Position numbers and translations under genes: made by a program. This document shows positions 21,253 to 63,800 of a stretch of DNA of 64,000 nucleotides, piece after piece. The notes below the pieces were generated by a model. The model saw only the letters and a list, made by a program, of their open reading frames with translations. It was not told the origin of the DNA and did not search any database. The stretch is taken from the NCBI GenBank assembly GCA_951406725.2, contig OX597818.1, positions 71,672,001 through 71,736,000 on the forward strand, read 5' to 3'. This DNA is from Octopus vulgaris. Lineage: Eukaryota. Every line of letters starts with the position of its first letter. The first letter of the stretch is position 1.

Positions 21253-22758
21253 GTTTCATATTCACCTCACAATGACAATCTGACAACGCTAATCTATAAT
21301 TGATGAGTAACAATTATTTCTAAACCTATAACTAACGTCACCTAGGAACAAAAATGATCTATTAACCTGCATAACTAAATGAAAACAAGAAAGCAAGCTA
21401 ACGTACACTAACAACAGAAGTATAACGATCGAACAAATTCCAGCTTAACACAACTGCGGACTTCTCTCATCAGCTGCCTAACGGATATCATGGTGATTTC
21501 GACATATCTACCTACCAACATGCAAACAAGTTGATAGTTCACCCTTCAATTTGACGGTGATGTAGATACACTAGCATGCAGATTGTGTTTTTATAATGTG
21601 AAAAAAAAAAAATTACTCAACGGCAACATAAAAGCATGACATCTGAGTTGTACAAGAGTAGAGGAGACCACTAAAATAGCTGAAGGACTTTTCAAACCTC
21701 GCAATATCATATGTTTGCAACGTATAACTTAGTATGACATTCTGTGTGATTTAAATCCTGCGACCAAAATGGTAACCCATCCGAGCTTGCATGGTGAAGA
21801 CGTCTTACTGGTTGAAAAACAAGTGTATGTCAGTGTGTGTGTGTGTGTGTGTGCGTAAACACGAGCATATGTGCATGTGTGTATAAGTGCGTACGCATGT
21901 GTGTACGCGCACGCGCGTGCGTGTGTGTGTGTGTGAGTGGTTAGTGGTTTGCTCGCATTTCCTTGAAATGTGCTATGGAAGAAATGAATAACCTTCATCT
22001 CAACAACTACGACGTTCGTAACAGCAGGCCACTGGGGCAACAAGTGTAAGTGGAAGCACACACAACATCACATGCCACACCCCATATGCATATATCGCAT
22101 ATATGTAATGTAAGACTTGTAAAATATAGTAAAAATATTATTTTGGGTGATTCAAATGTTTTCTGATATACAATTCAATATGTTAAGTAAAGTGGTAGCT
22201 GTGTTTATTGTATCAAATATTTGCAGTGTATTCAGAGTTTCGGCCCAAGCTGATCTATTCACGACTGGGTATGTGTACTCGTACACGCGTACACATACAT
22301 ATATGCACATATGAGTGTCTATCTGTACAGACACTCACACATGTATGTACACATACACACGTACACACACACATACACTCACACATAAAACAAAGAGATG
22401 ACAGCGGAAAAACCAAATGTTATGCAATCATCTTCATTAGCTGTTTCTGCAATAAGATGTAGTGGACTCTCAGTTGGGTACCAGGATAACATCCTGTAGC
22501 TTTCTGTCTCGTTATGCCTAAGCGAGATATTAATATACATATATATATATTACATATATATGTATATAGGTAAAAACTTAAAGAGTGTGTGCGTTATGTG
22601 TTTGTATATATATATATATATATATAGTCTATTGTTCCGTGATGGTATGATCAACAGAAAAAGTGCTTCAATTTTAGTTTTTTATGGCATGTGGATAGTG
22701 TCTGATGATTGTACTGTTTGGCATGTTCTCAGCACATGAAACTAATAGTAGCACATAA

Positions 22759-57370: not shown

Positions 57371-59135
57371 ATATTAGTCTCATTATCAAACAGCCAAATA
57401 TAATGTTTTGTAGTTCAAAACAACAACAGTATTAGGTTTGTTGTTTGCTTTCGCAATTGGTTTATTTTTTTAGATCCCTCAAATATTTTTTCTCAGTTTC
57501 GCTGTATCAATCTTTATGGTGGATTGGTATTTGTTAACTTACTTTTTCTAAGTGATTTTAGTGGGTATTGCACAGAAGTAACCACCGTGATGAAACGATT
57601 CTAAAAACTATTGTAGGCTTTTAGAGTCATTTACCTTTTCTGCAGTTTGTATTGTGCTTCAAGTATCTACATACAACTTTCTCAGTAAGCTGATCTATTT
57701 TTTGTTTTTACTGACGTGTTACATCAATGTTATCTGGAGAAAGGCCAATGTCAGTTTTTATTTCATGTCTCTCCTCAAGTTCACAAGCTGTAATACATTA
57801 ATTTCAGACAATAGATTGAAGTTCTTTCCTCTGCCAGAGATGTTGCGTCGCGCTTACATTCTATGTTTTATAATGACGTCATTACCTATTTATGACTGAC
57901 CTTTCTATTATCATAGCAATTATAGTTTGGCTTATTACTTCCATTGATGATGAAGTTCCTGGTAGTAATATTAGGTCACTCTAATGTCCATCAGGCCACA
58001 CTAATGTACATTAAGATATCATAAATGTGTTGTGAGCGATATGCTTCTTATACACGTGACGGTCATATTTTAATAACACCCTTTGAAGTTTCACCTCTTA
58101 CTCACTCGATATTAAATAGGTTCTCATCATATCTGACATTCTCATCTTATCTAAGAATATTTGTAATTTCCATCATGCTGTAGAAGTTGTCACTTTTAGA
58201 TTTCCGTGGCAAGGCACAACTTTCCTTGTCTTGTATCCATATATATATATATTTGACAAACTAGTCTTAATTCTTGTAGAGTTATTTAATCTATATTTTT
58301 TTAAAATCTCATTACCAAATACTCTTGATACTGTTAATATTTGATAGTCTTCGTATTCAACTCATACTCAGCTCGTACTCTACTCGTACAAGTTCACTTT
58401 GTTCACGAAGAAAATATTTCAAAAGGTTTTGTTTTGAATCAGATCTTTATCCATCCATCCATCCATCCATCCATCCATCCATCCATCCATCCATCCATCC
58501 ATCCATTCCTCTACACATTTATTCATGCATACACGCATATTATGTGTGTGTGTGTATGTTTGTGTGTGTGCATGTGTGTTAACGTGCGTATCTGTGTGCA
58601 TGTGTGCGTGCGCATATATATATTACATACATAAGTATGTATACGTTTGAATGTGTGTGTATGTATGTTCTCTTCTGTTCTTAATAATTCGAAATCATCC
58701 TATAAGGAAGGAGCTGTTTTTTAACAACGCTACAAAGCACTATCGCTGGAATGTAAATAACAAACACGCATTCACATTTTAGACCTGAGAAAAGTCTTGC
58801 ATATTTTTACTGTTCCACTTACAGATTGTATTTGTAATGTGCGAATTAGCTGGTTGATTTCTTTTTCTGAAAACCCTAGCTTATGCAGATTGTTACTTAG
58901 GTATTTATTCACAAAATCAAGCACAAAAATTTTCATTGGTATAGATGTGAATTTATAATCTAAGTGTAGAAGCTGGAGGTTTCGAAAGAGTTGTCCGTAG
59001 TTTTCCTCTTTCTCTTTGGTTTTACATCAGTAGGGTAGCTATGACGACACAAAATTTTACTTGTCTGTCCCAAGCAACGATATCCGGGTTGTTATGTTTA
59101 CATTTATAAGAAGTTCAGATGGAAATGCTCCATTT

Positions 59136-59244: not shown

Positions 59245-59362
59245 TGTATGTATGTATGTATGTATGTATGTATGTATGTATGTATGTATGTATATATGTA
59301 TGTATATATGTATGTATGTTTGTATGTATGTATGTATGTATGTATGTATGTATGTATGTATG
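59136..59362. repeat. (TATG)n microsatellite
   Basis: Tetranucleotide array; a similar (TACA)n array lies at 19297-19381. Confidence 0.95.
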
Positions 59363-59410
59363 ATAAAACTTACTTGGAAGAGGATGCGTAGCGTTCAATC
59401 ATATAATAAT

Positions 59411-59465
<55 letters not shown>

Positions 59466-59470
<5 letters not shown>

Positions 59471-60627
59471 TATGTGGGCACAGGACATCACGAAACATGT
59501 GCAACGAAAAGTACAAAGCACGCGTACAAAGTACGAGTACATGAACTATTCTTTTGAACAACGAAAGACACAAATGGAAAACAAAACAAACAGCATAAAG
59601 AGCGATCCTTCATTAGTTGTTGGCTGTTTTTCTAGTCTCGTATTTCGAGTATTTAACAACAATATACGTTTTCGATAAAACAGTTGCTCCCGCAAAGCAA
59701 ATTAAATCAAATTTGGGATTTTTGCGGAGGGTCAAAATAGGTAACACAAAGAGGACAGTGAAAACAAACAGGAAGGGCTGCTAAACGAGGTTGTGGTGGT
59801 GAACGCGTAAATCTAGCAAGGACAGGAGACAAGCAAGAACACTATTCCTTGTTCCAGCTACAACGGAGAGAAAGAAAGAAAGATGGCCGATGGTCACGTG
59901 GGAGCTATGTGAGCAAAGGAGGAGGAGTTAGGGAGAGAGAGTGACAGAGTAATAGGATAAAAACGTAGGAGAAGAGGAGATAAAAGGACAAGAGAGAAAA
60001 ATGAAAGAGTAAAAAGATCGTATAGAGTGCGCATCAGAATTATTAAGATAAAACTTTCTTGGAAGAGGTTGAGTGGGCGTTCAACCATATAATTTATATA
60101 AATAATATATATACTTCTCTCTCTTCTCTTCTCACATGACCGATTGGCCAGCCTGCTCTTCCTTTTTGATTTGACCGTGGTCTGTGCAACATCGATATTC
60201 TTCCCTGTGTTTGTAAAACATTTGTATCTCTGCCGTAAGGCTTCATTTCCACACGCGCCAGTTTAATTCAATTCGTCCTTAGTCGAAAGACGCCTGTTGT
60301 TATGTTGTTATGACCTGTTATTATTTTTATTGTATTTTTTTAATTGTATTTATATTTGTGTAACATTGTCCCTTTTTGCCATCCTTGTTTTTGTATACAT
60401 TCGATGCTTTCTTCCAAGGAATCTAATGCTCTTAGCTTAGTTTTTGCTTAGGGCTGGCCAGATTGGCGCAATCTCAAGAATAATCAGCCGAAATTGCGAG
60501 GATAATCTGGTTCTTGACTGAAGATAGAAAACTCCTTGTTTTCTTTGCATCGTCTTTCTGGATGTTTTGTTGTCCCCTTTTTATATCACTTAGTTGTCCA
60601 GATGTTTTGCGTTCTTGCCCCATTTTG

Positions 60628-60630
<3 letters not shown>
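59466..60630. mobile_element. Non-coding element of two diverged, head-to-head units between (TA)n tracts, each carrying a hammerhead-like motif; a partial third copy at 60750-60795
   Basis: Inverted motif tggccgatggtcacgtggg (59884) versus ctcacatgaccgattggcca (60131). Both units end in T-rich tails running into (TA)n. The terminal tgcat..gtggg.acaggacatcacgaaacatgt.caac is repeated at 60751. Confidence 0.55.
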
Positions 60631-60692
<62 letters not shown>

Positions 60693-60825
60693 AATATATT
60701 CATAAATACATATGTATAGGTACATACTTACATCTATACGTATATATATATGCATAAGTGGGTACAGGACATCACGAAACATGTACAACAAAAGGTATGT
60801 ATGTATGTATGTATGTATTTTTTTG

Positions 60826-63800
60826 TATGGCAGGTCACTTTCGAGTGCTACAGGTAACATGTAACCCAGAACAACCTGTTGCATGGTCGGGTCGTCGGCG
60901 ACTAAACCGGTAACCCCACCAAGCTTGCTTGGTCTGGAGGATGTTTATTGGACACCCTGCGGGATGAAAAACAAAACCCGTCAAAGGGCGGAGGAACTCT
61001 TGAGAGTCAACGGCCATCCAATAAATGTGTTTTTATTTATTTATTTATTTTTTTTCTTCTTAAGGCTTAAGGCTGTATCATGCGCGGGGACATAGAAATA
61101 ATTGGACTGAATACCCGATCGCGCGGTTAAACCATTGGGAGTGAAGGACTCCTATCCTTTGTTAGGGCATCCTTCTAGGAGAAGGTAACTCAGGTAACTG
61201 GGATAACTCCGACATAAATCTGCGGCTCAGTGGTTACCGATGATGTTGACTTGTTCTTCTTTTCGGATTATGGCTGCTGTTGCTTAGTGAGTGGGATTGA
61301 CTCAGTGCACAGCCTTTCCTCACTTTAAAAAAATCTTTTTGCACAGGTATTGCACGATAACTACATTGGATTGATTAAAGTGATTAACTAATTCATGACT
61401 GTTGATTGTGCTGTGAGTCTCAACTGAATGGCTGACTGTAGCCTTAAAAATCAAAAATCAATGATGTACCAAAACAGTATAAAAATAAATGGCAGTAAGG
61501 AATCTGGAACGACATCGGCTGAAAGAGTCTGGCCCGGCAGGGGCTCCAGAGCATCACAATCTGAACCCGGCCGTCATCATGCTACTGTGATAGAACCAAA
61601 GAAAATAATGAATATTGGCTGTTGGAATGTACGGACACTGCTTGACCACAAGTCCCCTGAACGTCCCGAAAGAAGGACTGCGCTTGTTGCGAAGGAGCTT
61701 CAACGCTATGATCTTGACATCGTTGCTTTATCTGAGACGAGATTACCTGGAGATGGTCATCTTACAGAATCTTGTGGAAAATATGCATTCTTTTGGAAAG
61801 GGAGAGATGAAGAGCTTAGAGGAGAAGCTGGAGTGGCATTTGCTGTTAAAACTACTCTTGTGGACAAGTTGGAAGAATTCCCAATCAGAATTAACGAGCG
61901 TCTTATGTCCATGAGAATTCCTTTGGCTAAAAGAAATGATATGACCTTGGTGAGTGTGTATGCTCCAACTATGTGCTATACTGATGACGAAAAACTTTCT
62001 TTCTACCACGCTATGAAGGGCATTATAAGAAATATCCCTCGGGCAGACAAAATCATTGTACTGGGTGACTTTAATGCTAGAGTGGGTAAGGATTTTAACA
62101 CATGGACTGTAATTGGAAAGCATGGGGTGGGGAAGTGTAATAGTAATGGCATGCTTTTGCTGTAGATGTGTGAGGAGCTGAGTCTGTGTCTTACCAATAC
62201 CATGTTTCAATAAAAGAATATGCTTAAGACTAAATGGATGCACCCTGCATCTAAAGAATAGCATATTCTGGATGATATCCTAGTTAGGGTCCGTGACAGA
62301 CAGGATGTGCAGTGTGTTCGTGTTCTTCGTGGAGCTGAGTGTTGGCCTGACCACCGCCTAGTACGTGCAAAAGTGAAATTAGTCACAAAACATAAAATCC
62401 GAGCTGCAGGGATGACCCTGCCTAAAAGACTGAATGTTGATCGTCTTAGGTATAATAGTGTGAAGAGAACTTTACAAGAGGAAATGAATGCTGCAGATAT
62501 TGGGGAGGATTGACCGACCCTTAAAAAGTCAGTTTATGATATAGGCAAAACAGTTCTGGGATTGATACAAAGAAAGCATCAAGATTGGTTCAAAGAAAAT
62601 GATGAACATATAGATGATTTATTGGCTGATAAAAGACGTACTTTGTCACGCTATTTGTCAGCAAAGTCACAGGAAAGGGAAGTGTTGCATAGGGAACTCA
62701 AGGACGTAAAATCACGTGTGAGGCAAAAACTCTCTCAGATGAGGGATACGTGGTGGAGTAAGAAGGCTGACGAGATACAGGCGGCATCAGATTCCAATAA
62801 TACAAAGCTGTTGTATGATCTCTTGCGAGAAATTTATGGACCGACATCTTCCCCGATGACACCAATTCGAAGTAGGGATGGTAAAGAACTTCTTCGTGAT
62901 TCACAAGGAATTCTGCAAAGGTGGCAAGAACACTTTGATGAACTTTTGAATCAGTATTCTGTAGTTAGTGAGGATGTTCTCAATCTCATCCCTGGATTGC
63001 CTGTGAAGGCAGCACTCGCAGAACCACCAAAGTTGGAAGAAGTTGCAATGGCTGTCTCAAGGTTGAATAATAGGAAGTCTCCGGGTATGGATGACATACA
63101 TGCAGAGTTGTTACAGCATGGTGGTGAGAAAATTCTGCAGAAACTTCACTCTTTGATTGGTAAGGTATGGACTAGTGAATCTGTACCTGAGGACTGGAGA
63201 GATGCAGTAATGGTGGTCCTGTATAAGGGAAAGGACAACAGGAATGATTGTGGTAATTATAGGGGAATATCATTGCTGTCTGCTGTAGGAAAAGTTTTAT
63301 GCAGGATACTTCTGGATCGTCTGCTGAAATACATTGTAGATTGTGTTCTTCCAGAAAGTCAATCTGGCTTTTGTGTGTGACGCGGCACTGCTGATATGAT
63401 CTTTTCAGCTAGACAGCTTCAGGAAAAGTGTGTGGAACAGGGTCTGGATTTGTATCAGATGTTTGTCGATCTGACAAAAGCCTTTGATACCGTCAATAGA
63501 AAAGCATTGTGGAAAGTCCTCCAGAAACTTGGGTGTCCTGAAAAGTTCCTTGCTTTGGTTAGGTCTTTCCATGAAGACATGAATGGTAGGGTGAATGTTA
63601 GAGGGAAGATGTCGGAGCCTATTTCAATACAAAATGGAGTGAAACAGGGGGATATTCTGGCACTGACCCTATTTTCCATATATTTCGCGATGGTGTTCTG
63701 TATTGCATTCAGAAACTGCAGATACGGTGTTTACGTCCATTATCGAACCTCTGGCAGCATATTTAATATCAGGCGCCTTGCTGCAAAAACAAAGATATTT

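Follow-up and report, generated by a model that had tools for sequence, protein, structure and literature searches.

Hammerhead ribozymes of types I, II and III are cyclic permutations of the strand order CUGANGA > GAAA > UH, and in hammerhead chemistry G12 serves as the general base and the 2'-OH of G8 as the acid. A further order, cleavage site > GAAA > CUGANGA, is that of type SGC, for which Eckert et al. 2023 (PMC10085705) demonstrated cleavage at slow rates of 0.007-0.19 per min; its 583 examples come from metatranscriptome-led searches, and none was reported from the genomes of known organisms. Two ribozymes of type CSG, from soil metagenome DNA, were tested in the same work, and CSG RNAs cleave as well. 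The scheme assumes that CUGANGA and the helix II strand are inseparable by more than 1-2 nt, i.e., that block C is unbroken; other insertions in the core lowered hammerhead activity (PMC3088659). Among Penelope-like retroelements, the Naiads have been reported to lack canonical hammerheads, and some cases listed as 'HHR_core' or 'HHR_half_core', which no descriptor matches, were left unexplained. The view that Naiads do without hammerheads has served to argue that such ribozymes may be mere parasites of Penelope-like elements (Craig et al. 2021, PMC8557442).

An earlier note had pointed to two hammerhead-like motifs in a 64,000-nt stretch of the Octopus vulgaris genome (hereafter the window). 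Judging from comparisons of sequence, we regard them, with a probability of about 0.8, as real copies of a conserved and probably catalytic RNA, a known kind of ribozyme in a new strand topology.

Two motifs in the octopus window

Both motif strings are present as the earlier note had written them, copy B on the plus strand and copy A on the minus strand. Copy B lies in a 5'-truncated copy of a repeat family, B1 (60112-60629, +), that ends in a (TA)n tract. Its helix II begins with G10.1 in an upstream strand, 10.x (60452-60457), whose partner is 60484-60489. This strand is followed by the 5' strand of a further helix, X (60458-60464, partner 60504-60510), the counterpart of the stem I-II interaction helix in SGC, and then by block S (60467-60480), consisting of a helix III strand, the AUC triplet and a helix I strand. 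Helix III pairs 60467-60471 with 60494-60498, and helix I pairs 60474-60480 with 60511-60517; by analogy with the hammerhead core, the predicted cut falls between 60473 and 60474, just after U16.1-C17 (60472-60473). Block G (60484-60498) contains the 11.x strand of helix II, GAAA (60490-60493) and the second helix III strand, and the 3' part (60504-60530) carries the 3' strand of helix X, the second helix I strand, the CUGAAGA core (60518-60524) and the 3' strand of another helix, P0. Helices I, II, III and X are thus as they had been drawn in the earlier note, but the unit is larger, since P0 and a hairpin, P5, had been missed. The 5' strand of P0 (60408-60413) pairs with 60525-60530, directly after A9, with U.U as the first pair, and P5 (60414-60451) lies directly 5' of helix II, with two pairs broken relative to the 8 bp of the family majority. 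The core of copy B is intact, and 13 nt are deleted after the 3' strand of P0.

Copy A belongs to a second family, A (59417-60113, -), which stands head to head with the B1 copy and whose 3' end runs into (TA)n. The 5' strand of P0 (59733-59728) and a 7-bp P5 (59727-59690) together occupy 59690-59733, and helices II, X, III and I, the decayed core and the 3' strand of P0 occupy 59604-59689, with GAAA at 59646-59643, the core CUAAUGA at 59616-59610 and the 3' strand of P0 at 59609-59604 (all on the minus strand). In intact copies the cut is predicted between the positions corresponding to 59663 and 59662. Copy A shows G5>A, a C.A mismatch in helix II and a mismatch in P0; the first two are departures from the family majority, in which core and helix II are intact, and the earlier suspicion that this copy is probably inactive agrees with its decayed sequence. 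Beyond the (TA)n tract lies a repeat of about 44 nt of the start of the family A unit (59362-59405, -), resembling the 'tails' described for Penelope-like elements in PMC8557442. A fragment of a third, O or Naiad-like, family with GAAA and CUGAUGA occurs at 21460-21504 (-).

Several other features were noted in the neighborhood. A second fragment of a family A 3' end (60760-60793, -) adjoins the (TA)n tract of copy B, and elsewhere, too, one microsatellite often harbors copies of both A and B (loci L036, L040, L044, L047 and L055). Both units carry a CACGTGACC-like word upstream of the ribozyme (in the region 59900-59890 and at 60135-60150 of the window), a possible promoter element. Downstream, the first of several LINE-like frames (61428-63380, +) matches the endonuclease/exonuclease/phosphatase domain PF03372 (E 4e-12), and a 288-codon frame after it resembles the start of a reverse transcriptase (RT). 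On the other side, an 84-codon frame (58772-59026, -) without a Pfam match is like one in locus L075 and is probably the end of the ORF of another retroelement. No tRNA was found in the 64-kb window.

Conservation of the fold across six repeat families

We built majority sequences for six octopus families, namely, A and B1 (30 copies each) and B2, O, A4 and B4 (20 copies each), the latter four having been reached by tracing divergent matches. All six majorities have CUGANGA, GAAA, an N-U-H triplet with A or C as H17, and G10.1-C11.1. Every possible pair is formed in helix II with the upstream strand (30/30), in helix III (18/18) and in helix I (30/30), with up to four pair types per helix position among the six families, whereas mixing strands between families leaves only 0.55, 0.44 and 0.53 of the positions of helices II, III and I paired, respectively. 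Pairing helix II with the bases that follow A9 gives 8/30, 13/30 and 14/30 at offsets 0, 1 and 2, so that the proposal of the earlier note that the 5' strand of helix II comes from upstream is supported. Helix III extends for 4-6 pairs after A15.1-U16.1, helix X has 5-7 bp in the six families (interrupted in B2), and the linker between helices I and II measures 1-7 nt, in agreement with the pseudoknotted, non-circularly permuted hammerhead with a short linker that had been suggested.

The two additional helices are also found throughout. The hairpin P5 ends at the base before G10.1 and forms 6-8 of 8 pairs in all six families. P0, in which the strand before P5 pairs with bases from A9+1 onward, scores 4-6 of 6, versus a mean of 3.1 and a maximum of 5 (reached by one cross-family combination) in a control between superfamilies. 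The junctions between A9, P0, P5 and helix II are 0-1 nt long. P0 is the weakest of the helices, with a U.U first pair in B1 and B2, a bulge in B4, only three Watson-Crick pairs in O, and one position unpaired in five of the nine rows of an alignment of B-subfamily copies. In that nine-copy alignment the six-helix structure pairs 91.6% of the cells, whereas slid registers pair 28-52%, and 8 of the 28 pairs are changed on both sides, a number reached by 1 of 500 shuffles, although this figure is not a probability since the sequences are related. Compensatory changes are therefore present among subfamilies, both in this alignment and in the six majorities.

The earlier note had further spoken of covarying helices between copies A and B. 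However, A and B yield only one 13-nt match on alignment (E 0.53), and since they do not align, the likeness between them is a structural equivalence rather than covariation proper, and the independent witnesses in the octopus genome are three superfamilies (A, B and O). As the six families fall into these three, there are fewer independent events than pairs counted. Within families, substitutions affect core bases in 24/1538 cases versus 921/17573 elsewhere, a contrast that we do not count as evidence because the copies were chosen by similarity and mix subfamilies. The alignment of the A-superfamily member A2 was left out of the counts for one misplaced row and register shifts. Further subfamilies with altered helix pairs (A2, A3, A5 and B5) were each seen as a single copy; loci L114, L138, L035, L084 and L135 were noted for these or for the CACGTGACC-like word.

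A descriptor for the order UH > GAAA > CUGANGA, with an exact core and at least 3, 4 and 4 bp in helices III, I and II, respectively, matches copy B in the window and nothing in 20 dinucleotide shuffles of it. It returned two matches in 400 kb of evenly spaced genome samples and none in five shuffles of them, and 84 matches versus none in the reversed sequence of 1.05 Mb of collected loci, which are enriched for the ribozyme families by construction. The upstream helix II is present in 83 of these 84 matches (77 of the 83 with G-C at 10.1-11.1), whereas a downstream partner is possible in eight, and the single match with a downstream partner only is a 5'-truncated copy. Alone, the bare core pattern is not significant (two matches in the window versus 0.38 expected, a number reached by 10 of 100 shuffles). 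As is to be expected of a doubly pseudoknotted fold, the nested folding z-scores (-0.66 to -1.65) are likewise insignificant, and nested minimum free energy (MFE) folding tells nothing about helices I and II. Comparison of the window and of seven loci (six with an intact copy and one with a young-family 3' end) with Rfam gave only microsatellite-driven and other sub-threshold matches and no ribozyme family, which bears out the expectation that standard searches would miss the motif.

Copy number, Naiads and the question of the carrier

The octopus genome (2.8 Gb) is rich in microsatellites. A first look gave 3508 candidates for family A and 3178 for B1, of which 40 each were scored (90-94% and 87-93% identical, respectively). 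Copies of A and B share a common 3' end that passes into (TA)n about 150-190 nt after the predicted cut, and have varied 5' truncation points. Eight places in the 400 kb of evenly spaced samples match the families, which corresponds to tens of thousands of copies genome-wide, about 56,000 by simple scaling and roughly 24,000-110,000 on Poisson limits, in an estimate for which one family was seeded from the same sample. Most copies are decayed, the strict descriptor accepting two in this sample; B2 is young, its copies being about 1% from their own majority. Copies close to the majority from P0a through P0b include L015 for B1 (exact over 126 nt), L163, L165, L167 and L170 for B2 (exact over 128 nt) and L034 for A. 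Same-strand periods of 782 and 769 bp in A4 and of 725 and 746 bp in B4 were seen, and no ATG ORF over 86 codons was found in the three tandem units checked, suggesting that the sister families form non-coding tandem units of about 725-780 bp, reducible to monomers by one cut per unit. Among 30 loci each of A and B1, tails and irregular pairs occurred, but no two copies lay in tandem one unit apart. Insertion at (TA)n, 5' truncation, tails, and tandem or inverted copies were all observed, and are common to other Penelope-like clades too.

Family O links the fold to a described element. A 17-base word from the published 3' end of Naiad_Obim has 299 exact matches in the octopus genome, and its control none; the 3' end of Naiad_Obim/Ovul matches family O by eye; and in locus L219 an N-terminal GIY-YIG domain, RT motifs and an O-family motif (87.7% identical) follow one another on one strand. 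On these matches, family O represents the 3' end of a Naiad of the octopus, and the genome holds families that differ little from published Octopus Naiads. We searched the published Naiad consensi (supplement of PMC8557442) for four core words and parsed the 3'-end matches by eye, without computation. The places covered were 55/62, 27/43, 23/23 and 25/25, the remainder falling after the Naiad file; a core word broken across two lines, a core of the U3-A8 kind or an incomplete consensus would escape this search. Within this scope, 8 of the 54 consensi have the complete fold (P0, P5, upstream helix II and X), namely, those of two octopuses (Obim and Ovul), two Acropora (Amil and Anas), a cubozoan (Movir-2), one Clytia, an acanthocephalan (Plae) and a clam shrimp (EuTe). 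Two more have an imperfect one, Aacu with two mismatches and the ctenophore Bfor with only two pairs in helix I, bringing the total to 10/54 in five phyla. In six of the eight nematode consensi the motif is of type CSG and its block C is unbroken, and neither fold was seen in the other 38 of the 54, which include all 11 bivalve ones. The Naiads of Euprymna, Darwinula/Limulus and Saccoglossus have core words that we could not fit to the fold by eye. A spider Naiad (PMC8557442 S5, part 17) has the order S > G > C with a 10-bp helix III, an 8-bp helix I and a long linker; its helix II does not parse clearly, and it is possibly a further variant. In layout, the nematode CSG motifs resemble the soil-metagenome CSG ribozymes of PMC10085705; as a conjecture, the latter may come from retroelements of soil animals.

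A and B appear to be non-coding. A search of the GIY-YIG family, a search with the Naiad endonuclease, upstream walks and a tblastn search of a Penelope-type protein over the collected loci revealed no ORF joined to A or B. Naiad-type matches in the octopus genome are few and mostly broken, old remnants (locus L212 is a 5' fragment only), whereas intact 781- and 784-codon RT-GIY-YIG frames with a C-terminal endonuclease are abundant. Since the Naiads here are remnants, yet B2 is young, a young Penelope-like family of the C-terminal-endonuclease type may be the present mobiliser of A and B. The young families with intact 784- and 781-codon RT-CxxC-GIY-YIG frames were seen to end in canonical-order minimal hammerhead-like motifs (L215-L217, about 1250-1450; 3' ends of L086, L090, L091 and L105) with the core UUGANAA, the U3-A8 covariant described in PMC3088659. 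A further element with a C-terminal GIY-YIG, in L084, carries a canonical-order minimal type I hammerhead-like motif in its 3' UTR (about 2370-2420, +).

Proposed topology, alternatives and known ribozymes

The motif would best be explained, at the probability of about 0.8 given above, as a self-cleaving hammerhead whose strands follow a seventh topology. From 5' to 3', the proposed order is P0a, the P5 hairpin, helix II (10.x), Xa, helix III, UH with the cut after it, helix I, the linker, helix II (11.x), GAAA, helix III, Xb, helix I, CUGANGA and P0b. Joining A9 to G10.1 on paper would restore the ring common to SGC, CSG and GCS, and the topology can be read as a circular permutant of this non-cyclic ring (C > S > G), opened at A9|G10.1 rather than in a linker. 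Against this proposal stands that the literature searched yielded no natural hammerhead in which the A9-G10.1 bond is open. The core would fold as a normal hammerhead and cut after H17, a near-perfect four-way junction of P0, P5, helix II and the core would replace the missing A9-G10.1 bond, in which helix II stacks onto the core and P5 onto P0, and the linker together with helix X would do the work of the loop-loop contact by keeping stems I and II side by side. The motif would act as the pseudo-LTR ribozyme of Naiad elements and of short non-coding relatives (A and B). One ribozyme per tandem unit of about 725-780 nt could cut read-through transcripts into monomers, which, by analogy with retrozymes, may become circular and be inserted anew at (TA)n by an RT of the Penelope type.

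A merely accidental order of short words in the repeats, which the near-chance frequency of the bare core pattern in the window and the insignificant z-scores would seem to allow, is refuted by the pairing in six families and the nine-copy B alignment, and we give it a negligible probability: all shuffled or reversed controls are devoid of descriptor matches, and six helices are kept with differing sequences in six families and in distant animals. It is also very improbable that we are dealing with an ordinary type SGC ribozyme, in which helix II forms with the bases that directly follow CUGANGA, so that the upstream match would be fortuitous or act as an off-switch. The purine-rich stretch behind A9 in A and A4 can form four pairs, with G.U, at a one-base offset, and the eight descriptor matches mentioned above allow a downstream partner. 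However, downstream pairing, at the 8-14 of 30 given above, fails in B1, B2 and B4, the sole downstream-only match belongs to a truncated copy, and the bases after A9 pair in P0 instead.

The fold may also be real without unaided cleavage by the monomer, needing a protein (e.g. the RT of the element) or a second RNA copy, or serving only as a protein-binding signal whose shape stayed hammerhead-like. In favor of this, minimal Penelope-type hammerheads cleave slowly and as dimers (reviewed in PMC6765202), hammerhead cleavage was not needed for insertion of a Poseidon element in vitro (PMC11167929), and the SGC ribozymes themselves are slow (PMC10085705). Nevertheless, we consider it unlikely: the catalytic positions are invariant in all six families, helix III with its 4-6 pairs is unlike that of minimal dimeric forms, and a dimer would leave the A9|10.1 break in place, as the 11.x strand finds no partner in the bases that follow A9. 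More plausible, if still on the doubtful side, is that the ribozyme is the one proposed but its carrier is not, A and B being non-autonomous and moved by the young C-terminal-endonuclease families, with the fold acquired or independently evolved. The abundance of the intact frames next to few and broken Naiads, the youth of B2 and the absence of mutually alignable sequence between A and B agree with this, but the 3' ends of Naiads from five phyla, as parsed by eye, have the same fold and junctions, and the young families bear canonical-order minimal cores instead. The origin and the present mobiliser of A and B may differ.

Returning to the self-cleaving hammerhead opened at A9|G10.1, we judge the odds to be about even for a broader, joint reading, in which this seventh natural topology, with the core opened into a four-way junction, would be the long-missed ribozyme of Naiads in at least five animal phyla, the nematode permutant CSG would record re-permutation by a shift of unit boundaries in tandem arrays, and in the octopus it would drive tens of thousands of non-coding retrozyme-like copies yielding circular RNAs of about 750 nt. 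A hammerhead opened at A9|G10.1 would break the stated rule of an uninterrupted block C, bring non-circularly permuted ribozymes, so far metatranscriptome RNAs of unidentified source, into animal genomes, and revise the view of Naiads as multiplying without hammerheads. It also offers RNAs ready for testing, a descriptor with which to search other genomes, and a scaffold whose two free helices lie at the catalytic core.

Compared with known systems, the octopus motif is closest to type SGC, with which it shares the order S > G > C, all core bases, a short linker between helices I and II (about 3 nt in SGC) and a I-II interaction helix. In SGC, however, the stem II strand comes directly after CUGANGA, whereas here a break at A9|G10.1, which P0 and P5 close, divides block C, and the motif sits in an animal genome. 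Because the unbroken block C that defines SGC is absent, we do not file the motif under that type, though by analogy it should work like one. Type CSG has the same strand ring, including the I-II helix, and is a circular permutant of the octopus form, but is opened in the G-to-C linker, with block C intact and without P0 and P5. Types I-III (Rfam hammerhead families; Perreault et al. 2011, PMC3088659) have the core bases, A15.1-U16.1, G10.1-C11.1 and the three core helices in common with the octopus motif, but a cyclic order and a core without a pseudoknot, whereas the octopus motif runs UH > GAAA > CUGANGA and has no Rfam match.

On the side of the carriers, Naiads share with the octopus families the (TA)n targets, 5' truncation, tails and tandem copies, but A and B have neither an ORF found nor an alignable link to Naiads, and PMC8557442 proposes no fold. 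Non-LTR retrozymes (Cervera and de la Pena 2020, PMC7229834; Li et al., bioRxiv 10.64898/2026.07.22.740005) are non-coding tandem units linked to Penelope-like elements with one hammerhead each, an arrangement that the unit-length pairs of A4 and B4 suggest. Their hammerheads are of type I, their units typically span 150-450 bp, and their circular RNA has been shown; the octopus units span about 725-780 bp, are mostly 5'-truncated single copies and do not carry type I. In the openly accessible literature searched, no account of an A9-opened hammerhead or of a fold for the Naiad cores was found. Of the new architecture that the earlier note had proposed, the strand order was thus already published as SGC, and the motif is not a new ribozyme class. 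As far as that literature shows, what is new is the opening at A9|G10.1, its closure by a P0/P5 junction, and the occurrence in Penelope-like retroelements of animals.
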